From Patescibacteria group bacterium (GTDB lineage Bacteria; Patescibacteriota; Minisyncoccia; Moranbacterales; UBA2206), in assembly GCA_022709735.1 (NCBI GenBank), contig JAKLIG010000003.1, forward strand, positions 70,384 to 134,383: a stretch of 64,000 bases of DNA. Reading direction: 5' to 3'. Under the pieces are notes generated by a model. It did no database searches, had not been told where the DNA came from, and was given only the letters and a program-made list of their open reading frames with translations. Shown here one piece after another: positions 5,821 to 54,959 of this stretch; positions within the stretch are counted from its first letter, which is position 1, and each line of letters begins with the position of its first letter. The position numbers and the translations under genes are program-made.

Positions 5821-7713
5821 TTAATTCTGGCTTTTTTTGTTTTCAAAATACCAGCTTAACACTTCTTTTGTCACTGGCAAGGCCGCGCTATTCCCTTCTC
5901 CTCCGCCTGGCACAATTACCGCTAACGCAATTTCCGGATTTTCATATGGCGCAAAAGCGATAAACCAAGAATGGGTTTTTCCTTCTGTTCCAAATTGGGC
6001 TGTTCCGGTTTTTCCGGCCACTGCCACCGGCAAAGTTTTGAGTGTTTGCGCTGTCCCAGATTCAATTGTCATTCGCATTCCTTCTCGCACCACATTCATA
6101 ACATCTGCTGATATAAAATTATTGTTTAATATTTCCGGATCAACTATTTTTTCCGTCCCATCATTTTTTCTGATTCGATTTACAATTCTCGGGGAATAAA
6201 CTGTTCCGCCATTGGCAAGCGTAGCAGAAAAATTTGCCAATTGAAGCGGAGTTGCCGTCACAAATCCCTGGCCGATAGCACAGTGATAGCTGTCGCCAAT
6301 ATACCATCTTTCACCCAAATTATTTAATTTCCATTCTTCACTAGGGATAAATCCCGGCGTCTCTCCCGGGATATCAATCCCGGTTAAATTTCCAAAACCG
6401 AATAAGTTTTCATATTTTTTCATTCGAGACATTCCAAGGCCACTTATATTTCCATATCCTCCGCCCAAAGTATAAAAAAATATGTCATTACTTTCAGAAA
6501 TCGCGCGTCTCACATCGCTTGGCGCATGCGCTTTCCAGTCTCGAAAACTAAAACTTCCAATATTTATCACTCCTCCCAGCCCATCAATTATCGTTTCCGG
6601 TGTAATTGTTTTTTCTGAAAGCGCCGCGGCCGCTATAGCCGGTTTTATAGTTGAGCCAGGCGGATAAATCCCCGCGATACTGCGATTAAAAAGCGGGAGA
6701 TTAGCATCACTGATTAAATTTTTATAATCCTCATTGGAAATTCCTTTGGCAAAAAGATTATTATCATAGCTTGGCAGATTCACCAGCGCCAAAACTCCGC
6801 CGTTTCTTGGATCAATCGCCACCGCGGCGCCAGTTTGCGCTCCAGTTTTTTGCAAAACTTCACTCAAACTATCAAAAAATTTTTTCTGCAGTTCTCCATT
6901 AATATTGAGCACGAGATCATTGCCAGCTGTTGGATTTATGACGCCTAGCGTCCTTTTTACATTTCCCAAAGAATCAACTTCTGCCTGCGTCGCGCCATAA
7001 ATTCCGCGAAGTTCTTTTTCATAATTTTTTTCCAATCCGCTTTTCCCGATATAATCAGTCATCAGATAATCTGAATTATCATTGAGTTCTTCCCGTGTTA
7101 TTTTTCCATCATACCCAATGACTCCGGAAAAAATCGGTCCGCTATCATAGGAACGGATGGCTGTTTTTTCTAATTTTATTCCAGAAAATTCTGCTTCCCT
7201 TTCCGCCACAATCAAAGCTTGGTCTCGACTGATGTTTTCCTTGAGAAGAACCGGATTTAATGATTTAGGATCTTGGCTCGAAAGCATAATTTCAATGTTT
7301 CCTGAATTCATATCTAAAATCCCCGAAAGTTTTTCGGCAATTTCTTTTTTCGCACTGTCGTCTTTCGGAAGATCAGCTGGAATAACAATTGCATCGATGC
7401 TGGGCGCATTTCCCGCCAAAACATTTCCAAGTTTATCATAAATTGTTCCTCGAGGAGCCTTGATAACCACCGATCTCACCCGATTGCCTTTAGATATTTC
7501 ACTGTAATATTTTCCTTGGTAAAAGTTCAAATAAATAACTCGGCCAGCCAAAATTAAAATAATCACCACAATTGCCAGCCACGCCAGAGAAAGTCCCTGC
7601 CTTTTGAAAGGCGATTCAATTATCGCCTCCTCTTTTTGCGTTATGGTCATAATCGAATCTTCAATTTCCGTTCCTTTTCTGATTCTTCTTTGATTGAAAA
7701 ATTTTTGAAACAT
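5821..7713 (-). CDS. mrdA: penicillin-binding protein 2 (peptidoglycan D,D-transpeptidase)
   Basis: The active-site motifs SXXK (GSTIKP) and KTG (AGKTGTAQ) are present, with an N-terminal TM anchor. It lies directly downstream of mreBCD. Confidence 0.85.
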   Translation of the reverse strand: MFQKFFNQRRIRKGTEIEDSIMTITQKEEAIIESPFKRQGLSLAWLAIVVIILILAGRVIYLNFYQGKYYSEISKGNRVRSVVIKAPRGTIYDKLGNVLAGNAPSIDAIVIPADLPKDDSAKKEIAEKLSGILDMNSGNIEIMLSSQDPKSLNPVLLKENISRDQALIVAEREAEFSGIKLEKTAIRSYDSGPIFSGVIGYDGKITREELNDNSDYLMTDYIGKSGLEKNYEKELRGIYGATQAEVDSLGNVKRTLGVINPTAGNDLVLNINGELQKKFFDSLSEVLQKTGAQTGAAVAIDPRNGGVLALVNLPSYDNNLFAKGISNEDYKNLISDANLPLFNRSIAGIYPPGSTIKPAIAAAALSEKTITPETIIDGLGGVINIGSFSFRDWKAHAPSDVRRAISESNDIFFYTLGGGYGNISGLGMSRMKKYENLFGFGNLTGIDIPGETPGFIPSEEWKLNNLGERWYIGDSYHCAIGQGFVTATPLQLANFSATLANGGTVYSPRIVNRIRKNDGTEKIVDPEILNNNFISADVMNVVREGMRMTIESGTAQTLKTLPVAVAGKTGTAQFGTEGKTHSWFIAFAPYENPEIALAVIVPGGGEGNSAALPVTKEVLSWYFENKKSQN

Positions 7714-14595: not shown

Positions 14596-14669
14596 TGCGC
14601 TGTGGAGGATTCGAACCTCCGACCGTTTGCTTAAAAGGCAACTGCTCTACCAGGCTGAGCTAACAGCGC
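14596..14669 (-). tRNA. tRNA-Lys (anticodon UUU); CCA not encoded
   Basis: The sequence folds as a cloverleaf: acceptor GCGCTGT/ACAGCGC, anticodon loop CTTTTAA, T-arm GGAGGTTCGAATCCTCC. Confidence 0.85.
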
Positions 14670-15163
14670 AAAAATGATAAGCTGAGTCCCGACCTTGCGT
14701 CGGAGCTAACAGCGCAAAATAAAAAATAACTTTCGTTATTATATCATCCTCATTTCTTTAGTCAATACGAGCTTAACTAAAAAAAGAAGGAGCCGGGATT
14801 GTAGCTTGGAGGTTCATATGGGACCACCAAAAATTCGCACAATCTCGGCTGGGTTAAATTGTTTGAGGGTTTTAACCGTAAAGTTCTATTCCCCTAATCC
14901 CAACCTCTGCAAGATGATTTCTTGCCATTTTTCTGTTTGCCGCGGAAACAGTTTCATCCATCGACATTTTAAATAAATAATCACATACAACAGAAAAATT
15001 CTTTCCTGGGCTCGGATAGGGAGCTAAAACAACTACAGCTCCACCTTCTTCTTGCTCCGATTTCATCATGGTGCCATTTCCTTTCTTTTTCCTTTAAACC
15101 CTCGTCCACAGCGTTGCCTAAGATTCTAGGCTATGAGTGCACACCGTGTGCACATTTAACGCT

Positions 15164-18975: not shown

Positions 18976-19016
18976 ATTTTTTATTTAAAAAAATTATATT
19001 TTCTTCTCCTTACTGA

Positions 19017-19046
19017 CATTCTCACATTCTGCAGAATATGAGAATG
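19017..19046. promoter_or_regulatory. 30-bp palindrome CATTCTCACATTCTGCAGAATATGAGAATG (candidate operator), copy A
   Basis: It is a near-perfect dyad with one mismatch pair, centred on CTGCAG, 41 bp upstream of the methyltransferase ATG. A second copy lies at 49075-49104. Confidence 0.5.
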
Positions 19047-19835
19047 TTATTCTTTAGACATTATAAAATACTCGAGAACTTTCGGATGCAATTTCTTATT
19101 AGTCGCAATAATAGAATCAGCGTCCATGCTGATAGCCCGTCCATCAAAATTCGTTACAACACCCCCTGCCTCCTCGATGATAACTTTCACAGCAGCAATA
19201 TCATAGAGCTTGGCCTTGGCCTCAACCATTATATCCATTTTTCCTTGAGCAACTAAATGATAACTCCAAAAATCACCAAAACCTCTAGCGCTGTTTGCAT
19301 CGGCCGTTAATTTTGCCAAATTATCAATAATATTCTTTTTGTAGAAATGTTTTGGACCGCCAAATGTTATATAGGTCGACTCTATTTCTTGAGTTTGCGA
19401 TACGGATACTTTTTGTTCGTTGAGATAAGCACCGCCGCCTTTTTCTGCATACATTAGTTCTCCTAAAGCTGGTGCGTTAGAAACTCCAAGAATTATTTCT
19501 CTATCTTTCATCAAAGCAATTTGCGTTCCAAAAATCGGAATATGGTGGATAAAATTGTTCGTGCCGTCAATTGGATCGATTACCCAGACATATTGAGACT
19601 CCACATTTTCTTTTCCTGATTCTTCTCCAAAAAATCCGTGATCGGGAAATTCTTTCCTGATGGTCTCAATAATTATTTTTTCCGCCCCTTTATCTGCCTC
19701 TGTAACAAATGACCGATCCGCTTTCTGAGTCGATTTAATCTCTTTGGAATAATATTCCATTATTATTCTTTCCGCTTTCTTAGCTGCTTGAATAGCTACT
19801 TCTAAAAATTTACTTTGCGATTGTAATTGGTTCAT
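19047..19835 (-). CDS. inositol monophosphatase family protein (SuhB-like)
   Basis: The IMPase motifs WVIDPIDGT and GGxxY context are present. The product is 262 aa. Confidence 0.8.
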   Translation of the reverse strand: MNQLQSQSKFLEVAIQAAKKAERIIMEYYSKEIKSTQKADRSFVTEADKGAEKIIIETIRKEFPDHGFFGEESGKENVESQYVWVIDPIDGTNNFIHHIPIFGTQIALMKDREIILGVSNAPALGELMYAEKGGGAYLNEQKVSVSQTQEIESTYITFGGPKHFYKKNIIDNLAKLTADANSARGFGDFWSYHLVAQGKMDIMVEAKAKLYDIAAVKVIIEEAGGVVTNFDGRAISMDADSIIATNKKLHPKVLEYFIMSKE

Positions 19836-20649: not shown

Positions 20650-22614
20650 TTATTCTTTTTTATCCCCTTCCTTCGTCTCCGCGTCCCGCACACTGTCATC
20701 TGATTTATTGGATGACTGTGCGTCCGCCGATGAGGCGGATTCGCTTGCCTGTCCGCCTTGGGCTGATTGCTGGGACTGCTGAGCCTCGTTAGCGGCTTTA
20801 TAAAGCTTCTCGCCGATTTTTTGTGCTGATTGAGATAATCCTTCGGTAGCTTTTTTGATAGCCTCAATATCATCTCCGTCTTTTACTTTCTTGAGCGCTT
20901 CAACTGCTTCTTCAACTGGTTTTTTTTCATCGGCAGTAATTTTGTCCCCAGCATCGCGAAGCGCTTTTTCTGTGGTATAAACCAAAGTGTCCGCCATATT
21001 TTTCGCTTCAATGAGTTCCTTCTTTTTCTTATCTTCCTCCGCATGTGCTTCAGCATCCTTTTTCATTTTTTCAATTTCATCTTTGGAAAGTCCCGTCGAA
21101 GCTTCAATGCGGATTGATTGCTCCTTGCCAGTGGCTTTGTCCTTAGCTTTGACAGAAAGTATTCCGTTGGCATCAATATCAAATGTCACTTCAATTTGCG
21201 GAATACCTCGAGGCGCTGGTGGAATACCGTCTAGAATAAATCTTCCAAGAGTTTTGTTGTCAGAAGCCATTTCTCGTTCGCCTTGCAAAACATGAATTTC
21301 GACTGATGGCTGGCTGTCAGCCGCAGTTGAAAATATTTGCGATTTGGCTGTTGGCACCGTCGTGTTTCGTTCTATGAGAGGTGTTCGCACTCCGCCCATT
21401 GTTTCAATTCCAAGTGTAAGGGGAGTCACATCCAAAAGTAATACATCTTTTACATCGCCTTGAAGCACTCCACCTTGGATTGCCGCACCAAGCGCCACTA
21501 CTTCATCCGGATTAACGGTGAGGTTAGTTTTCTTACCAAAAAAATCTTCCACTGTTTTTATGACAAGTGGCATTCTAGTCATTCCGCCAACCATCACTAT
21601 TTCATTTATATTCTTAGTTTCAAGCTTCGCATCCGCGAGAGCTTTTTTTGTTGGCTCCAAAGTTTTCTTGACCAAGTCTCCGACTAATTCTTCCAATTTC
21701 GCTCGAGTAATTTTCATCACTAAATGTTTCGGACCATTAGCGTCAGTCGTGATAAATGGCTGATTAATTTCTGTTTCCACTGCAGTTGAAAGTTCAATCT
21801 TAGCTTTTTCCGCCGCTTCTTTGATTCTTTGAAGCGCCAACGGGTCGTTTCCAAGATCAATACCTTCTTGTTTCTTAAATTCCGAAATAATCCAGTTAAT
21901 TATAATTTGGTCAAAGTCGTCTCCGCCAAGATGCGTGTCACCATTGGTTGATTTCACTTCCACTGTGTCGCCTCCCACTTCCAAAATAGAAATATCGAAA
22001 GTTCCGCCGCCAAGGTCATAAACCGCAATTTTTTCATCTTTCTTTTTGTTGAATCCATAAGCCAAAGCCGCCGCTGTTGGTTCATTGATAATGCGTCGAA
22101 CTTTGAGTCCCGCGATTTCTCCCGCTTCTTTGGTGGCTTTTCTTTGTGAGTCGTCAAAATAAGCCGGAACAGTAATCACTGCTTCGTCTATTTTTTCTCC
22201 CAATTTTTCTTCGGCATCCGCTTTTAATTTTCCAAGTATCATTGCAGAAATTTCTTGCGGTGTATAATCTTTGACTTGCCCCGAGCCTGTTGAGGGGTCT
22301 CCCATTTTTATTTTCACTCCGCCGTTTGATTTTTCAATTTTATACGGCATAAGCTTCATGTCTCTTTGCACTTCTTCGTCCGTAAAAGCCCGTCCGATCA
22401 GGCGCTTAATGGAAAATAGCGTGTTTTGCGGATTAGTCACGGCTTGGCGCTTAGCCAAAAGCCCGACCAATCTTTCCCCGGATTTTGAAATCGCCACCAT
22501 TGAAGGTGTAGTTCTCGCCCCTTCTTTGTTTTCAATTATTTCCGGCTTTCCGCCCTCCACGATTGCCATCGCGGAATTAGTTGTCCCCAAATCGATTCCT
22601 AATATTTTGCTCAT
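20650..22614 (-). CDS. dnaK: chaperone DnaK (Hsp70)
   Basis: It carries [18 protein letters not shown] and the Hsp70 signatures, followed by a C-terminal acidic tail. The product is 654 aa. Confidence 0.97.
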
Positions 22615-25130: not shown

Positions 25131-25364
25131 AGCAATCTCCTTTTTCTTATTTTTAACAGCACATTTCTGGCTATCTCTGCACGGCGCAGAGGCAGTCAGA
25201 AAATGGCTGTTAAATGACTAGCCATAAGTTTTTAATGTTCAATTAGCTATTATACTCTTTTTTTATCATTTTGTCAAATATAAATATTATAAAACAAAAA
25301 AAGGCCTTAAAAAAGCCTTCTTTTAATTATTGGGCCAATAGTATTCTCACTTCGCGCTATCTTG

Positions 25365-31543: not shown

Positions 31544-31725
31544 TTTTTTTTATTTTCCTTAAATTATAAAATTATTTTTTATAATCCAGGTTAAATTAAT
31601 TATTTATAAAATTTATTTGAATTATTTCGACTTTTGTTTTATATTATCTAAGCGCCGATGTAGCTTCAGCCCTAGGCTGATCCGCCTCGGGCGGACAATT
31701 GGTAGTCGAGAGAAAAATATTATAT

Positions 31726-31798
31726 GCCCTCTTAGCTCAGTTGGCAGAGCGACGCATTCGTAACGCGTAGGTCATCAGTTCGATTCTGATAGAGGGCT
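31726..31798 (+). tRNA. tRNA-Thr (anticodon CGU); CCA not encoded
   Basis: It folds as a cloverleaf: acceptor GCCCTCT/AGAGGGC, anticodon loop TTCGTAA, T-arm ATCAGTTCGATTCTGAT, discriminator U. Confidence 0.85.
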
Positions 31799-31835
31799 CC
31801 GTTTACTCCGCTTGCCCCGTGGCAGCGAAGCTGCT

Positions 31836-32738
31836 TTACGGGGTCATATCCACCAGTCTTTGCCATTCGTCATTAACTAATTTTTGTATTTCTTCCAATA
31901 CTTTCTTATTTTCTTCTTTGAACAAATGTTTGAATCGTCCTTGCGTTTTCAAAAATTCGCTGACTGGCTTTGGTTTTTCCGTCGCGAAGTTTATTTTATA
32001 TTTTCCATTTTCGATTTCATAGAGTGGCCAGAAATTTGTTTCGGTTGCTAATTTGGCAAGAGCTACATATTCTGAAGTCGGAAATTTCCAATTATTAGTG
32101 CAAGGCGAAAAAACCAAAAGAAAAGTCGGTCCTTCGGTCTCCAGCGCTTTTTTGGCTTTCTTTTTTAGATCGGCTATATATGCCACATTCGCTTGCGCTA
32201 AATATGCAATTCTGTGAGCATTGACTATTTCCATTAAATTTTTCCGCGTTTCCATTTTTCCAAAAGATTTTTTTCCAACTGGTGTAGTTTCCGTGAAAGC
32301 GCCATAGGGAGTTGCTGAAGATCTTTGGTTTCCCGTATTCATATATCCCCCATTGTCATAACAAACATAAAGAAAATTATGCCCACGCTCCAGCGCGCCA
32401 GATAAGCTTTGAAGTCCAATATCATATGTTCCGCCATCCCCGCCAAACGCCACGAATTTTATTTTTTTCTTAATCTTGCCTTTTCTCTTTAGAATTTCAT
32501 ATGCTTTTTCCACACCGGAAATTGTTGCCGCGGCATTTTCAAAAGCGCTGTGGATATATGGCACTTTCCAAGCGGAGTATGGATAAAGCGTGGAAGTCAC
32601 TTCAAGGCATCCCGTGGCATTCGCCACCACCACTTCGTTTTTCGCCTCGCCTAAAATAGTGCGAACTATCGCCGGAAATCCGCATCCTGCGCAAGCGCTG
32701 TGTCCCGGAGCAAAATGTTTAGTTAATTCTTTGTTCAT
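31836..32738 (-). CDS. porB: pyruvate/2-oxoacid:ferredoxin oxidoreductase beta subunit (TPP-binding)
   Basis: It has TPP-binding GDG..N-type motifs (AFGGDGGTYDIG) and the Cys cluster of the POR beta subunit. Confidence 0.85.
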   Translation of the reverse strand: MNKELTKHFAPGHSACAGCGFPAIVRTILGEAKNEVVVANATGCLEVTSTLYPYSAWKVPYIHSAFENAAATISGVEKAYEILKRKGKIKKKIKFVAFGGDGGTYDIGLQSLSGALERGHNFLYVCYDNGGYMNTGNQRSSATPYGAFTETTPVGKKSFGKMETRKNLMEIVNAHRIAYLAQANVAYIADLKKKAKKALETEGPTFLLVFSPCTNNWKFPTSEYVALAKLATETNFWPLYEIENGKYKINFATEKPKPVSEFLKTQGRFKHLFKEENKKVLEEIQKLVNDEWQRLVDMTP

Positions 32739-33009: not shown

Positions 33010-34167
33010 TTACTTTATATATTTCCCTTTATGTTTCCCCAAAATCACATCCTCGATTTGTTTTTGAAAAATATCTCGTCCGCCGAGACCATAAATATAG
33101 CTTTTTATTTTTTTATTTATAGGTACGGACAGGTCGCGACCTGTCCCTACGAATGAATTTAATATTTCGCTGTAAAACGGTGGATTTGTTCCAATTGATT
33201 GCGCGCGATCAAGCACAATTATTTCTTTGGCATTTTTGAGAGCTTCGGCGATTTCTTTGTGTGGAAACGGCCTAAATAAGCCGATTTTCAATAGCCCTAC
33301 TTTTTCTCCGGATTCCCGCAATTTATCAATCACAACTTTGGATGTTCCGGACGCACTGCCAGTGAGCACTAATATTTTTTCTGCGTCTTCTGTCTGATAT
33401 TTTTCAAAAAATTCATATTTCCTTCCACTAATTTTCTCGAATTCTTTGGCAATTTTTTGATATTCTTCAAAAGCTTTTTCCATTGCTTCTTCTTCGTCAA
33501 TCCGAAATTCAAAATATGAATTTTGAAGCGCGACTGGTCCATAACTCACGGGATTGTCAGTGTCAAGAAGCGAATTTATTGCTTCAAATCTCCCAACAAA
33601 TTCTTTGACGATTTTTGTTTCCAAAATTTCCAAATTTTCCACCGAGTGCGAAGTGTTGAATCCATCCATAATTACCATGACCGGCAATTTCACTTTTTCC
33701 GCGAGTCTCATTCCAATAATTGTTTTATCATAAACTTCTTGCCCATTTTCACAAAAAATTTGAATCCAGCCGGAGTCTCGACAGCCCATCACATCAGAGT
33801 GATCGCCATGAATGTTTATCGGGGCTGCCAGTGCTCGCGCGCTAACAAGCATGAGAATTGGAAGCCTCATTCCGCTCGCAATATAGAGCATCTCGTGCAT
33901 CAAAGCCAAGCCTTGCGAACTTGTGGCCGTTGCTGTTCTTGCTCCTGCTGCACTCGCTCCAATCGCCGCACTCATGGCAGAATGTTCCGATTCAACTTTT
34001 ATTATTTCCGTATCCACTTCGCCATTCGCTTGAAAACCGGCATAAGTTTCAATAATCGGCGTTTGCGGTGTGATCGGATAAATCGGCATCACTTCCGGTT
34101 CGATTTGTTTCAAAGCCTCGGCCGCCGCTGCTCCACCAGTCAACGCTAATTTATTTTTTTTATTCAT
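33010..34167 (-). CDS. porA: pyruvate/2-oxoacid:ferredoxin oxidoreductase alpha subunit
   Basis: 385 aa with the POR alpha fold signature. It sits in porGDAB order. Confidence 0.85.
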   Translation of the reverse strand: MNKKNKLALTGGAAAAEALKQIEPEVMPIYPITPQTPIIETYAGFQANGEVDTEIIKVESEHSAMSAAIGASAAGARTATATSSQGLALMHEMLYIASGMRLPILMLVSARALAAPINIHGDHSDVMGCRDSGWIQIFCENGQEVYDKTIIGMRLAEKVKLPVMVIMDGFNTSHSVENLEILETKIVKEFVGRFEAINSLLDTDNPVSYGPVALQNSYFEFRIDEEEAMEKAFEEYQKIAKEFEKISGRKYEFFEKYQTEDAEKILVLTGSASGTSKVVIDKLRESGEKVGLLKIGLFRPFPHKEIAEALKNAKEIIVLDRAQSIGTNPPFYSEILNSFVGTGRDLSVPINKKIKSYIYGLGGRDIFQKQIEDVILGKHKGKYIK

Positions 34168-41508: not shown

Positions 41509-42243
41509 TTATTTCAAAATAGTTTCCCCGTCTTGCGCGATTCTTCTGTTTTTTACCGGATCATCCGCCACAATTTCTCCGTCTTTCATATAAAGAATTC
41601 TTTTGGCGTGTTCAGCGGTATAAGTTTCATGTGTTACCAAAATAATCGTGTGCCCTTCATCATTTAATTTTTGAAGAATTTTCATTACTTGCAGTCCCGA
41701 TTTTGAATCCAAGTTTCCAGTCGGTTCATCGGCAAAAATAATTTCCGGATTGTTGACCAGCGCTCTGGCAATCGCCACCCTTTGTTTTTCTCCGCCAGAA
41801 AGTTGATTGGAAAGATATTTCTCACGATGTTCCATGCCGACAGATTTCAAAGCATGCATCACTTTTTCCTGATTGATTCCATCTGGCTCCTGGTCATAAA
41901 GAAGAGGAAGCTCAACATTTTCAAAAACAGAAGTTCTTGGCAGAAGATTGAATGATTGAAAAACAAAACCGATTTTTTTGTTTCTAACTTTTGCCAAAGT
42001 ATCATCGCTAAATTTAGCCGCATCCTTTCCTTCGAGCAAATATTTTCCTTCTGTCGGACGATCAAGTAACCCAAGAACCTGCATTAAAGTTGATTTTCCG
42101 CTACCGCTCGGCCCCATAATCGAAAGAAATTCCCCCTTCTCCACGACAAAATTCGCTCCGCAAAGCGCCGGAGTTTTCACACCTTCATTTTCATAAACCA
42201 TACAAAGATTTTTAACCTGGATTAAAGACATAATTACATCCAA
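41509..42243 (-). CDS. ABC transporter ATP-binding protein (MacB/LolD-type)
   Basis: Walker [10 protein letters not shown], the signature LSGGEKQRV and Walker [13 protein letters not shown] are present. The true start is probably Met5 (42231). Confidence 0.9.
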
Positions 42244-42782
42244 ATATTTTCAACATTATTTCTGTCCTGTTCCCAATTTTTCGGATTATTTAGAATATAT
42301 TCACGGATTTTGTTCAACGATATTTCATTTCGGATGATATGGTCGTAAAAAGATTTTTGCCATATCGTAGGGAACGCGTATACGCGTTCCTTTTTATTAT
42401 TTTTATCATATCCGTTTTCCATTCGCGTTACAGCAGCTTTGAAGCCCTGGACAATTTTTGATAATAACATTTTTGTTCTATTGGTATTTTTGGAACGCAT
42501 ATATGCGTTCCCTACATTAATATTGAAATTTATTTCAATAATTCCGTGAACATGATTCGGCATTATGACATATTGATCTAAATATATATTATCAAAATGT
42601 TTAGGGATTTCTAAATAACATTTTTGAACAATTTTCCCTAATTCATTCAAAATCATTTTTCCATTTTTTATTCCACCAAACAATTCTTCCCTATTTTTCG
42701 TGCAAATTGTCACAAAATACATCCCGTTCTGGGAATAATCGTAATTTTGCAAACGATTGTTTTTTCTATTTTTTAATTCCAT
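42234..42782 (-). CDS. REP-associated tyrosine transposase (RAYT) / IS200-like HuH Y1 transposase homolog
   Basis: It has the HuH motif MPNHVHGII, the conserved IWQKSFYDHIIRNE (compare E. coli RAYT IWQPRFWEHAIRNT) and a catalytic-Tyr region REYILNNP. It is embedded between the HlyD-like gene and the ABC ATPase gene. Confidence 0.8.
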   Translation of the reverse strand: MELKNRKNNRLQNYDYSQNGMYFVTICTKNREELFGGIKNGKMILNELGKIVQKCYLEIPKHFDNIYLDQYVIMPNHVHGIIEINFNINVGNAYMRSKNTNRTKMLLSKIVQGFKAAVTRMENGYDKNNKKERVYAFPTIWQKSFYDHIIRNEISLNKIREYILNNPKNWEQDRNNVENIWM

Positions 42783-43780
42783 TATTTCTCACTGGAAAGC
42801 ACCACCACATCTTCTCCGCCCTTGAGTCCTGACACAATTTCCACCATTCCGTCGTCCCCTTTCAGTCCAGCTTGCACATTCACTCGTTCCGTTTTATTTT
42901 CTGGTTTTAAAATTTCTACAAAATCTTGATTGCCATCATTTTTCACTGCTCGCAAAGGAATCATAACCGCATTATTTTTTTCCGCCGTATTAATATCAGC
43001 GTCCACACTCATTCCGATTTTCAATCTTTCATCCCATTTTGAAAGTTTTAATTTAGCTTTATAATAAACCACATCTTGAATGACAGTTGAAGCCGGTTCG
43101 ATTTCAAAAACTTCTCCTTCTAATTTTTCAGTTGACGGCAAAGCGTCAAAAGATATTTTGGCTTTTTGCTCGATTTTTACATCAATTACATCTGATTCTG
43201 AGACATCAATTTCAATAAATGGTTCGCCTAAACCGGAAATAACCAGAACAGAAGTATTGGCTACTGCATTTTCTCCAATTTCAATATTTTTCCTTGTAAC
43301 CGTTCCTTCAATCGGCGAATAAAGAATTGTGTCGCCTATCTGCTTTTTTATTTCATTAATTGCTCCCTCCGATTCTCTTATTTGCGCTCTTTGAGCTTCC
43401 CGCTGCGCATGATTGTAAGTGCCATCTCTTTTTTTCATATTTTTCAAAGTTTCATTCTGTACTTCAAGCTCGTGTTTAGCCTGCTCTAATTGCTCCAGCA
43501 ATACTCCTTTGTCAATCACCGCAATTTTTTGGCCCTTTGTAATATTATCTCCCACATCAACAAAAATAGACTCTACTCGCCCGCTTATTTTGAAAGACAA
43601 ATCTGATTCAATTTCCGGCTTGATTTCTCCAGTAGCGGAAACTGTTTTAGCAATAGTTCCGACTTTCGCTTTTTCAGTTGTGTAAGTAATTTTAACCGGC
43701 CTCGATTTCCAATAATAAATTCCGCCGATAATTAAAATTATCAGAACTAGAATTATATAGGTTTTTTTCTTCTTGGACAT
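42782..43780 (-). CDS. HlyD/MacA-family periplasmic adaptor subunit
   Basis: It has an N-terminal TM segment, a coiled-coil hairpin and lipoyl/beta-barrel domains. It is the first gene of the efflux operon. Confidence 0.7.
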   Translation of the reverse strand: MSKKKKTYIILVLIILIIGGIYYWKSRPVKITYTTEKAKVGTIAKTVSATGEIKPEIESDLSFKISGRVESIFVDVGDNITKGQKIAVIDKGVLLEQLEQAKHELEVQNETLKNMKKRDGTYNHAQREAQRAQIRESEGAINEIKKQIGDTILYSPIEGTVTRKNIEIGENAVANTSVLVISGLGEPFIEIDVSESDVIDVKIEQKAKISFDALPSTEKLEGEVFEIEPASTVIQDVVYYKAKLKLSKWDERLKIGMSVDADINTAEKNNAVMIPLRAVKNDGNQDFVEILKPENKTERVNVQAGLKGDDGMVEIVSGLKGGEDVVVLSSEK

Positions 43781-49029: not shown

Positions 49030-49074
49030 CTTTTTGTTTTAATTTATTTTCTATAACAATTACTAGCCTATTAA

Positions 49075-49104
49075 CATTCTCATATTCTGCAGAATGTGAG
49101 AATG
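49075..49104. promoter_or_regulatory. 30-bp palindrome CATTCTCATATTCTGCAGAATGTGAGAATG (candidate operator), copy B
   Basis: It is the exact reverse complement of copy A (19017-19046) and lies 45 bp upstream of the acs ATG. Confidence 0.5.
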
Positions 49105-49112
49105 TTCTTTTT

Positions 49113-53867: not shown

Positions 53868-54959
53868 CTAATCCATTAAACAAAGAACACCTGGCATTTT
53901 TCCTCCCGCTAAATATTCAAGCATCGCTCCTCCACCAGTCGAAACAAAACTTATCCTATCCATTGCATTATTTTTTTCCAAAATTTCCAGCGTTTCTCCT
54001 CCGCCGACTACTGTGTATGCGCCGGATGCTAAAACAGATTTCAATATTTCATTGGAACTAACGGCATATTTTTCTTCTTCAAATTTTCCAGTCGGCCCGT
54101 TCCAAACAATTGTTTTAGCGCTAGAAATTATTTCTTTGAATTTTTTGAGCGTTTCTGGTCCGATATCCAAACGGCTTGCCCCGTGGTCCGACGCAAAGTC
54201 GGACTTTACGGGGTCATCTACAAAATCAAAAGGCAAAATTACTTTCTCACTAAATTGCGTTTTTTGGTCTAGCGCTTCATTGGCAATTTTCCCGCCGACT
54301 AAAATATAGTCGTATTTTTCTTCAAAAAATTTAATCACCGGCAATTTCGTTTCAATTTTCGCACCACCGATGATTGCCACTGCCGGACGCGCAAAATCAT
54401 TTTTTATTTTTTCCATCTCTGAAACTTCTTTTTGCATTAAAAGTCCAGCATAGCTTGGAATAAATTTTGGTATGCCAGCAATTGAAGCTTGATTTCTATG
54501 TGATTGACTAAATGCATCATTAACAAAAATATCAAAATTCTCCGCTAATTTTTTGGCAAATTCTTCATCATATTCTTTCCCTGTTTCAACATCACCTTCG
54601 CCCGGATAAAATCTGACATTTTCCAAAAGCGCTATTTCTCCATCCTTTAATTTATCCATTGCTTCTGCAACTTTTTCCCCAATACAATCCGAAACAAAAA
54701 TTATTTTATAGCCTAAAATATTTTCAACATCATCCTTTATCTGACTGACAGAGAATTTCATATCTCTTTCTCCTTTTGGACGTCCAAGCCAAGTCATCAA
54801 AGCCACTTTAGCTTTTTTATTCATGAGATAATCAGTTGCTTCTTTTATTGTTTCAATTTTAAATTTTTCTTTAGCATGTCCGTCTTCGATTGAAACATCT
54901 ACTCCAACGCGAAAAATTACTTTTTTATTTTCGACGCTAGTATCTTGTATCTTTCTCAT
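53868..54959 (-). CDS. pgk: phosphoglycerate kinase
   Basis: It has the PGK N-domain and C-domain signatures (GGGAMLEYLAGGKMPGV). A surface-loop codon stretch is encoded by a GC-rich hairpin cassette (see findings). Confidence 0.9.
   Translation of the reverse strand: MRKIQDTSVENKKVIFRVGVDVSIEDGHAKEKFKIETIKEATDYLMNKKAKVALMTWLGRPKGERDMKFSVSQIKDDVENILGYKIIFVSDCIGEKVAEAMDKLKDGEIALLENVRFYPGEGDVETGKEYDEEFAKKLAENFDIFVNDAFSQSHRNQASIAGIPKFIPSYAGLLMQKEVSEMEKIKNDFARPAVAIIGGAKIETKLPVIKFFEEKYDYILVGGKIANEALDQKTQFSEKVILPFDFVDDPVKSDFASDHGASRLDIGPETLKKFKEIISSAKTIVWNGPTGKFEEEKYAVSSNEILKSVLASGAYTVVGGGETLEILEKNNAMDRISFVSTGGGAMLEYLAGGKMPGVLCLMD

Follow-up and report, generated by a model that had tools for sequence, protein, structure and literature searches.

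A dispersed family of very small palindromic repeats, probably insertion elements, with copies in pgk and porB of a Patescibacteria genome

Rickettsia palindromic elements (RPEs) are repeats of about 100-150 bp known only from Rickettsia. They lie in frame in Rickettsia genes, and repetitive extragenic palindromic sequences (REPs) turn up in open reading frames (ORFs) of several species, with REP ends often supplying stop codons (PMC3733652). The REP-associated tyrosine transposase (RAYT) of Escherichia coli cleaves single-stranded REP DNA (PMC3733652). Here we describe a shorter hairpin element from a 64,000-nt stretch of contig JAKLIG010000003.1 of a Patescibacteria group bacterium (the window). 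One copy lies within pgk, which encodes phosphoglycerate kinase (PGK), and another at the end of a porB-like gene for a pyruvate:ferredoxin oxidoreductase beta subunit. We conclude that both very probably belong to a dispersed family of miniature palindromic insertion elements. Patescibacteria genomes are small and tightly packed, so a repeated insertion element is unexpected in them.

As in the REP/REPIN-RAYT systems, the element is a 20-40-nt GC-rich imperfect palindrome whose stem has two tiers and whose unpaired nucleotides are conserved; the two copies in the window measure 33 and 39 nt. It also occurs as singles, arrays and inverted doublets, shares its genome with a RAYT-like gene, and, as REPs do at times, lies within ORFs and supplies stop codons. 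It differs in its consensus, CCCCGTAAA, in which GTAG appears only in the rare variants at loci L079 and L017 and CGTC is absent. The termini of the element are conserved across phyla, whereas REP termini are species-specific. About 40% of its copies are intragenic, with a marked frame preference. REPs are predominantly extragenic and number tens to hundreds per genome, and the element may differ from them in this, its copy number per genome appearing modest (2-3 in the 64 kb). There is no REPtron, the RAYT-like gene not being flanked by the element. Like RPEs, the element is a palindromic repeat that lies in frame in conserved protein genes of a reduced genome and is translated as an extra loop, and both have pseudouridine synthase hosts (L008, L096 and L122 here, RPE-1 in R. 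conorii; PMC3733652). Size and lineage set it apart from RPEs, since at 29-57 nt it is three to four times shorter and spans phyla. GC-rich clusters and coding palindromes of mitochondria (PMC6649704) are also in-frame GC-rich hairpins in an AT-rich compact genome, but they are organellar, have other sequences and sizes, and lack termini conserved across hosts. Full-text literature searches returned no description of this element, nor of such a dispersed repeat family in Patescibacteria. This comparison suggests a miniature palindromic element of the REP/RPE type.

Both host genes are on the minus strand, and the two window copies have the same orientation. On this gene-sense strand they share the outer sequence CCCCGTAAA-[hairpin]-CACGGGGCAAG and differ in their self-complementary cores (CAGCGAAGCTG and TCCGACGCAAAGTCGGA), each hairpin being nested within the common 6-bp outer stem. 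On the plus strand, GCTTGCCCCGTGG and (C)TTTACGGGGTCAT recur exactly at 31810-31822/31835-31847 and 54174-54186/54205-54217, and GCTTGCCCCGTGG and CTTTACGGGGTCAT bound the spans 31810-31847 and 54174-54217. The sequence common to both amounts to 27 nt, counting the C that precedes TTTACGGGG. The gapped pattern CCCCGTGG-N-TTTACGGGG has two matches in the window, at these sites only, and none in 100 dinucleotide shuffles. We therefore reject a coincidence of codon usage between the two sites, which the small size of the motif alone would favor: besides the empty shuffles, there are hundreds of further copies and orthologs without the segment.

The nested folds of the two copies reach -12.0 and -15.1 kcal/mol as DNA (z -4.0 and -4.5) and -20.9 and -26.8 kcal/mol as RNA. 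Compared with shuffles, folding energies are 3.4-5.2 standard deviations (SD) lower on the plus strand and 2.5-4.3 SD lower on the minus strand. The G+C content of the genome is about 36%, and its proteins mark it as a Candidatus Moranbacteria (Patescibacteria/CPR) MAG. An earlier sequence-only reading had described a GC-rich hairpin cassette at both sites, with cores that differ yet stay self-complementary, and had proposed a check of the DNA and RNA fold energies. The exact outer sequence, the empty shuffles and the nested folds well below shuffles all bear this description out.

At the pgk site, most orthologs read DFxDD|RLDIGP and the window protein reads DD[PVKSDFASDHGAS]RLDIGP, with 13 extra residues. 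Among 32 aligned PGK orthologs, 27 read DD|RLDIGP or a close variant, and 5 have an insert at this position whose core differs from one to another. No insert is present in the nearest orthologs (81-77% identical); it occurs at this same codon in four that are more distant, whose cores are DETSDN, --LRDH, DVISDH and DMISDH. Overall, the insert is present in 5 of the 120 best PGK matches. At the DNA level, empty sites read GAT GAT|CGA and the filled site GAT GAC[CCC GTA AAG ... GCA AGC]CGT. Inner stems covary among the filled sites (TCCGAC/GTCGGA, TCCGAT/ATCGGA, ATCGC/GCGAT), and the outer nucleotides stay the same at synonymous positions even though the pgk orthologs compared share only about 66% identity. 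In a neighbor-joining tree of PGK without the insert columns, the carriers are polyphyletic and the window gene falls among the empty P0002 and P0003 (82-85% identity). The AlphaFold model of PGK has a mean predicted local distance difference test (pLDDT) score of 91.7, and its sole stretch of three or more residues below 50 is the coil at 251-259, within the insert. The insert falls in a low-confidence coil of the model, probably a surface loop. The cassette had been said to encode a peptide inside PGK; this holds for 13 codons (PVKSDFASDHGAS), and the two preceding Asp residues are native.

Two PGK orthologs contain hairpins of other kinds. The pgk gene of P0003 (L126, 699-1793) carries in frame a perfect palindrome with a 16-bp stem, GGACATCGAATGTCCAT-AAT-.., which encodes RTSNVHNGHSMS. 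In that of P0022 (L002, 1385-2494), an in-frame 30-nt CCCGC..GCGGG-CAAG hairpin encodes PAFVKTLAGK and has the same CAAG tail as the element. These genomes seem generally prone to hairpin insertion within coding sequences.

In porB, orthologs end in ..LVDMTE, ..TTE or similar, and the window protein ends in ..LVDMTP. With copy 1 in place, ACG GAG TAA (T E stop) becomes ACC CCG TAA (T P stop): the insert carries its own Pro codon and TAA, so the Glu-stop of porB becomes Pro-stop. The displaced native GAG TAA persists at 31804-31809, and deleting the 33 nt restores ACG GAG TAA. Empty sites read ATG AC|G GAA TAA (L250) and ACG AC|A GAG TAA (L249), compared with ATG AC[CCCGTAAAGCAGCTTCGCTGCCACGGGGCAAGC]G GAG TAA in the window, and the synteny of porB with tRNA-Thr is found at the empty L250 site as well. 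By similarity ranking, the closest porB orthologs are without the insert. A second filled site, in L247 (P0148, 80% identical and ranked below many empty orthologs), has the insert at the same base, and its inner stem differs from that of the window by one compensated pair (GCAGC/GCTGC vs GTAGC/GCTAC). Two details of the sequence-only reading change here. Copy 1 begins 9-10 nt, not 12 bp, past the end of tRNA-Thr (31800), and although it does supply the stop codon of porB, it contributes the third base of a Thr codon, one Pro codon and TAA in place of the native Glu-stop instead of three codons.

The porA-like gene of the window also contains a GC-rich near-perfect palindrome, GTACGGACAGGTCGCGACCTGTCCCTAC (33123-33150, minus strand), which is in frame and encodes part of GTGRDLSVP. 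At this site the orthologs in L249 and L250 are 6 residues shorter, and that in L247 has a different 8-residue extra segment.

Relative to these orthologs, both window copies are insertions, and close pgk and porB orthologs lack the segment precisely. No target duplication beyond one ambiguous C was found in four independent comparisons of filled with empty sites (pgk, porB, the anticodon loop of a tRNA-Val in L024 and a tRNA D-arm in L180). The element thereby differs from DDE-type miniature inverted-repeat transposable elements, with their terminal inverted repeats and target-site duplications of 2-10 bp. A scarless, structured unit of 30-45 nt at many unrelated sites, with a patchy phylogeny at each site, points to mobile-element behavior. 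In both pgk and porB, GAT..ATGAC precedes the insert. Recurrence at the same site in these two genes may reflect an extended target, selection because very few sites tolerate an insert, the precise deletion of an old insert, or recombination that carries it between lineages.

The last two possibilities lead to an account without present-day transposition, in which old, vertically inherited inserts were repeatedly lost by precise deletion or were spread by homologous recombination after DNA uptake. The identical pgk codon in non-sister lineages and the porB copy at the same codon in a more distant ortholog fit this account. So does the single compensated pair between the window and L247 porB copies, as expected of homologous copies, and copies are shared by close relatives (L019/L102 and L038/L065). 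The unrelated cores within each genome suggest age over recent bursts. Loss alone, however, would need many independent base-precise deletions guided by a 1-nt flanking repeat. The window and L247 differ at flanking synonymous sites, which argues against a recent recombination tract, and over the same divergence neutral sites have changed far more than the outer sequence. Spread over phyla, tandem arrays and insertions into tRNA fragments need an insertion process at some time. We consider this account quite unlikely.

The element extends far beyond the window. We scanned one genome per species with the pattern ACCCCGTAAA-N8-38-CACGGGGCAAG and ran a second, unanchored scan of metagenomes. Matches were found in at least 118 stretches of species-representative genomes and at least 120 in metagenomes, giving at least 231 distinct exact copies with cores of 7-37 nt (mode 13). 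Because both scans demanded exact ends of 20-21 nt, part of the apparent invariance there stems from the search itself. A scan of viral contigs gave no matches and hence no sign of phage carriage. Among the matches listed, element length is 29-57 nt (mode 33), and the hosts are groundwater bacteria, most of them Patescibacteria from a wide range of classes (Moran-, Sacchari-, Woese-, Wolfe-, Yanofsky-, Kaiser-, Falkow-, Uhrbacteria and others). Other metagenome-assembled genomes (MAGs) with copies are labeled Omnitrophota, Myxococcales, Bdellovibrionales, Coxiellaceae or Gammaproteobacteria, Verrucomicrobia, Planctomycetia and WOR-3, labels that may include mis-binned contigs. The GC-rich "Myxococcales" copies form a variant of their own with inverted doublets; such doublets occur in the GC-rich variants L010, L071 and L079. 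The result is the opposite of the outcome named beforehand as refuting the idea of a cassette, namely two copies only and identical peptides in the orthologs: the further copies lie in other genomes and in metagenomes.

The sense consensus is (T-G-)A-CCCCGT-AAA-[variable hairpin, often RTC...GAY]-C-ACGGGG-CAAG-(C). Three parts are near-invariant, namely the 6-bp outer stem, the AAA/C internal loop and the CAAG tail. The inner stem-loop varies while staying self-complementary; nearly all listed cores are distinct. In 32 copies with 13-nt cores, all 5 inner pairs change on both sides. Double changes fill 54 cells of the inner helix compared with 14.1 in shuffles, none of 500 shuffles scores as high, and the signal is lost when the partners are slid. 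Diverged copies have compensated outer stems (CCGCGT/ACGCGG in L087, TCCCGT/ACGGGA in L082). Most loops read TNC in the sense direction and hence GNA in the antisense direction. About 10 of the 32 short cores contain a tandem UC/CU mismatch in the sense strand, which in the opposite strand becomes a stable GA/AG pair. This hints that folding of the DNA matters as well as, or more than, folding of the sense RNA. In the flanks, the -1 position is A in 89/122 copies (73%), TGA precedes 17/122 (14%) and +1 is C in 73/123 (60%); the flank logos show no strong target site.

Such covariation could also mark a functional RNA or DNA structure under selection, such as a hairpin whose bound protein protects or processes transcripts, in the manner of REPs at the 3' ends of mRNAs. 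The invariant outer part would then be the site of a conserved factor, the inner helix would need no more than pairing, and spread and loss would be secondary events. Conservation of the unpaired AAA, C and CAAG across phyla while the inner helix covaries is typical of a recognized structure, and the outer nucleotides kept at synonymous sites in pgk fit the same idea. Several copies lie at or just past stop codons, and sense copies outnumber antisense ones in ORFs (72:20) and between co-directional genes (47:22). Against this, one third of the oriented copies are antisense, the host genes and positions are mutually unrelated, and the closest relatives do without a copy and show no visible consequence. 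The GA/AG mismatch and GNA loops of the antisense strand fit DNA better than sense RNA. Rfam 15 at the gathering threshold found only tRNAs in 10 loci, and nothing relevant around copy 2 with E values up to 10. Arm-to-arm template switching can keep DNA palindromes perfect without function (quasi-palindrome mutation). We regard a selected structure as the principal explanation as unlikely.

Several other assignments were set aside. The hairpin is not an intrinsic terminator, since CAAGC.. comes next on one strand and TCAT.. on the opposite one, and it lacks a U-tract (a T run in the DNA). It is too short for an integron attC site (57-141 nt), and neither copy has the R''/R' core (RYYYAAC ... 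GTTRRRY). By inspection, an archaeal-type bulge-helix-bulge intron has the wrong bulge geometry, a kink-turn would need tandem GA past the bulge, and there are far too few copies for a DNA uptake sequence. CRISPR, ToxI or TIGR-like arrays also fail by inspection, the units being solitary and their variable part self-complementary.

To map the copies relative to genes, we took ORFs of 100 codons or more as stand-ins for genes. Among the matches listed, 92 of 226 copies (about 40%) are inside ORFs, 72 in the sense and 20 in the antisense direction. In intergenic regions, 47 sense and 22 antisense copies lie between co-directional genes, 17 between divergent and 15 between convergent ones. One reading frame dominates. 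This frame, S2, reads xAC CCC GTA AAx .. CAC GGG GCA AGx and gives [D/H/N/Y]PVK(S)..(D)HGAS; in the genome set, 33 of about 46 copies through which an ORF runs use it, and no frame is commoner in the metagenome set. Lengths divisible by three are found in 25/36 S2 copies compared with 35/83 others. The enrichment of both length and frame indicates that copies in ORFs are translated and not removed. Frame S0 contains TAA, and several copies use it as the stop of a gene, as in porB. In RluA-type pseudouridine synthase genes, the insertion site is identical in all three host loci, and L057 has a copy in porB at a different position. The sequence-only reading had proposed a tiny mobile or recombinogenic module that is tolerated in frame; the empty orthologs, the further copies and the frequent in-frame copies support this proposal and point to mobility.

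Other copies form intergenic head-to-tail arrays of 2-4 units joined as ..CAAG|CCCC.., and one fills the spacer between two tRNAs (L074). Several break truncated 5' tRNA-gene fragments directly upstream of intact tRNA genes, in the anticodon loop of tRNA-Val (L024) or in the D-arm at TAGCT|CA (L180 and L166). A compact conserved hairpin in essential genes and in an anticodon loop might suggest an intervening sequence that is removed from the RNA or skipped by the ribosome, such as a mini-intron, a self-cleaving motif or a bypass element. We hold this to be very improbable. The lengths divisible by three and the single open frame indicate selection on translation through the copies, the interrupted tRNAs are truncated fragments beside intact genes and not functional split tRNAs, and Rfam has no ribozyme or intron match. 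In addition, porB uses the TAA of the element, reproducing the protein length of its orthologs.

A candidate for moving the element in trans is a RAYT-like protein encoded in the window (Table 1). Its gene abuts or overlaps a HlyD-like gene (42782-43780) and an ABC ATPase gene (41509-42243). It was reached by tblastn with an approximate E. coli RayT query, and we rely only on the confirmation by curated models; tblastn with an approximate IS608 TnpA query gave no match. The protein has 3354 homologs, of which many are annotated as RayT; Moranbacteria and Saccharimonadales have members, as do unrelated phyla that share their habitats. The homologs sit in differing operons, where gene boundaries overlap, between a glycosyltransferase gene and wzy in L251 and elsewhere in L252.

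Table 1. Positions of the element copies, their host genes and related features in the window
Feature	Position	Strand	Details
Element copy 2, 39-nt insertion in pgk	54175..54213 (or 54174-54212, one ambiguous C)	-	sense CCCCGTAAA-GTCCGACTTTGCGTCGGAC-CACGGGGCAAG; encodes PVKSDFASDHGAS; covariance-model match 43.8 bits
pgk, phosphoglycerate kinase, 363 aa, host of copy 2	53868..54959	-	PF00162; identical to a Candidatus Moranbacteria MAG protein
PGK peptide stretch at the insert			DDPVKSDFASDHGASRLDIGP
Element copy 1, 33-nt insertion in the penultimate codon of porB	31811..31843 (or 31810-31842)	-	sense CCCCGTAAA-GCAGCTTCGCTGC-CACGGGGCAAG; covariance-model match 56.2 bits
porB-like, pyruvate:ferredoxin oxidoreductase beta subunit, 300 aa, host of copy 1	31836..32738	-	PF02775; "pyruvate ferredoxin oxidoreductase beta subunit"; stop codon within the element
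tRNA-Thr(CGT), convergent with porB	31726..31800	+	neighbor of copy 1, outside it
RAYT-like HUH/Y1 tyrosine transposase gene, 182 aa	42234..42782	-	NCBIfam NF047646 "REP-associated tyrosine transposase", E 4e-19, 69 bits (cut-off 80); Pfam PF01797 Y1_Tnp, 37.8 bits (cut-off 23)
Possible third, shortened member in dnaK	22275..22298	-	GACCCC-TCAACAGGCTC-GGGGCAAGT; covariance model 16.1 bits, E 0.04; no inner hairpin

We propose that the mobile form of the element would be a single DNA strand in its folded state, cut and rejoined in trans by an HUH/Y1 tyrosine transposase of the RAYT/IS200 type, with one cut just 5' of the hairpin (after A) and the other following the CAAG tail. Insertion would leave no scar and excision would be precise, which would explain the absence of target duplication, the arrays, and the patchy presence at the same site in non-sister lineages. 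Tandem arrays might arise because the ..AAG|C end of the element resembles its proposed ..A|C target. Selection would then retain only copies that are intergenic, at gene ends, or in frame within tolerant loops. IS200/IS605 elements are similar in making no target duplication, in depending on hairpins, in the compatible precise excision and in having a Y1 HUH enzyme in the genome. They differ in having two different subterminal hairpins, a sharply defined 4-5-nt target and a strong strand bias, whereas the element has one hairpin and is weak in both target and bias.

TIRtrons provide a further comparison, being Y1 genes flanked by inverted repeats that carry GGGGWSAS (PMC3733652). The window copies end in ..ACGGGGTCAT on the plus strand, and every copy ends in ..GGGGCAAG on the other strand, both of the form G4-N-N-A-N. 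This is a partial motif match with opposite polarity, the C-run coming first in the element and the G-run first in TIRtrons, and no gene lies between the arms. Locus L217 contains an intact Y1 gene flanked by perfect 24-bp inverted repeats, AAAGGGGTCAGGTACCTTTGATTT (approximately 6720-6745 and 7505-7530), which carry GGGGTCAG, a form of GGGGWSAS; it lies 3.5 kb from a tandem element pair.

A number of observations weigh against movement by a Y1 transposase. The RAYT-like gene is without flanking elements in the window, in L251 and in L252-L255. Clustering of ORFs in the 8-kb neighborhoods of 118 element loci yielded housekeeping families only and no recurrent transposase. The other Y1 sequences in element loci, the L217 gene and a broken ORF in L099, are kilobases away from the element and not adjacent. 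Transposition involving the lagging-strand template predicts a strong orientation bias relative to GC skew, and the bias is weak, with the sense strand G-rich at 118 loci and C-rich at 79. The weak target consensus alone fails to explain repeated insertion at the same codon in pgk and porB. The cores found in a single genome bear no relation to each other, contrary to what recent copy-and-paste would lead one to expect, and the mechanism does not account for frame S2 being about ten times as common as the equally open S1. The classical REP tag GTAG/CGTC is missing, the element having GTAA, with GTAG in rare variants only. It also forms a single compound hairpin as opposed to the two distinct end hairpins of IS200/IS605.

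Three further searches bear on how the element spreads. No empty outer hairpin (CCCCGTAAA followed directly by CACGGGG), which would imply a target for nested insertion, was found among the listed copies, the smallest core being the 7-nt GCTNCGC. A search for solo half-sites in the element loci found no long autonomous versions. A small GIY-YIG protein was rejected as a partner, occurring in 4 loci only and at variable distance.

Taking these points together, we lean towards the reading as a whole, a dispersed family of insertion elements moved by a Y1 transposase. The Y1 mechanism by itself is tentative and somewhat doubtful. A broader proposal would see a class of ultra-small mobile hairpins, among the shortest elements known to move, that spread horizontally over phyla, home to sites in conserved genes and are preferentially kept in one frame, so that many essential proteins display a stereotyped hydrophilic loop, PVKS..DHGAS; the frame bias and same-site recurrence might then reflect a targeting rule or a use of the peptide or RNA. 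We consider this broader proposal rather unlikely.

An element of 33 nt with near-invariant ends at hundreds of loci could serve as a marker of horizontal exchange among uncultured lineages and their neighbors. The affected loci include glycolytic, chaperone, RNA-modification and tRNA genes, and they offer a natural experiment on where essential proteins tolerate an added loop. The element accounts for some puzzling short lineage-specific protein inserts, and it affects annotation through false "variable loops", shifted stop codons (porB) and leftover tRNA-gene fragments. If the RAYT-like enzyme is its partner, the two would form a very compact single-strand DNA insertion system.

Other hairpins in the window resemble the element to varying degrees. 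The segment in dnaK encodes part of GD[PSTGSGQV]KDY, and E. coli DnaK is 8 residues shorter here; judged from its sequence, it may represent a copy that has decayed. A 5' tRNA fragment just upstream of tRNA-Thr (GCGCCGATGTAGCT ... CAATTGGTAGTC; 31652-31707, plus strand) is broken at TAGCT|CA by two other GC-rich hairpins, TCAGCCCTAGGCTGA and TCCGCCTCGGGCGGA, without the conserved outer sequence. The same fragment design with the element itself occurs in L180 and L166, in L180 likewise upstream of tRNA-Thr(CGT).

At 14654-14719, the first 15 nt of tRNA-Lys and 5 upstream bases (14654-14673) are duplicated at 14681-14719, and the duplicate is split in the D-arm by a hairpin, TCCCGACCTTGCGTCGGA (14687-14704). 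A motif similar to the cassette had been noted next to this tRNA; the hairpin is real, but it is without the conserved outer sequence and is better placed as a related kind outside the family. Its reverse complement, TCCGACGCAAGGTCGGGA, matches 15 of 17 bases of the copy 2 core, a similarity that alone is weakly significant.

Two 32-34-bp AT-rich perfect palindromes, ACATTCTCAYATTCTGCAGAATRTGAGAATGT, lie in short gaps between co-directional minus-strand genes (19016-19047 and 49073-49106). From their sequence they look like operators of a dimeric regulator, unrelated to the GC-rich element. Finally, a long imperfect hairpin, ..CTGGCTATCTCTGC-ACGGC-GCAGAGGCAGTCAG.., occupies 25152-25214, about 150 nt from tRNA-Gln, with an RNA fold of -24.5 kcal/mol.

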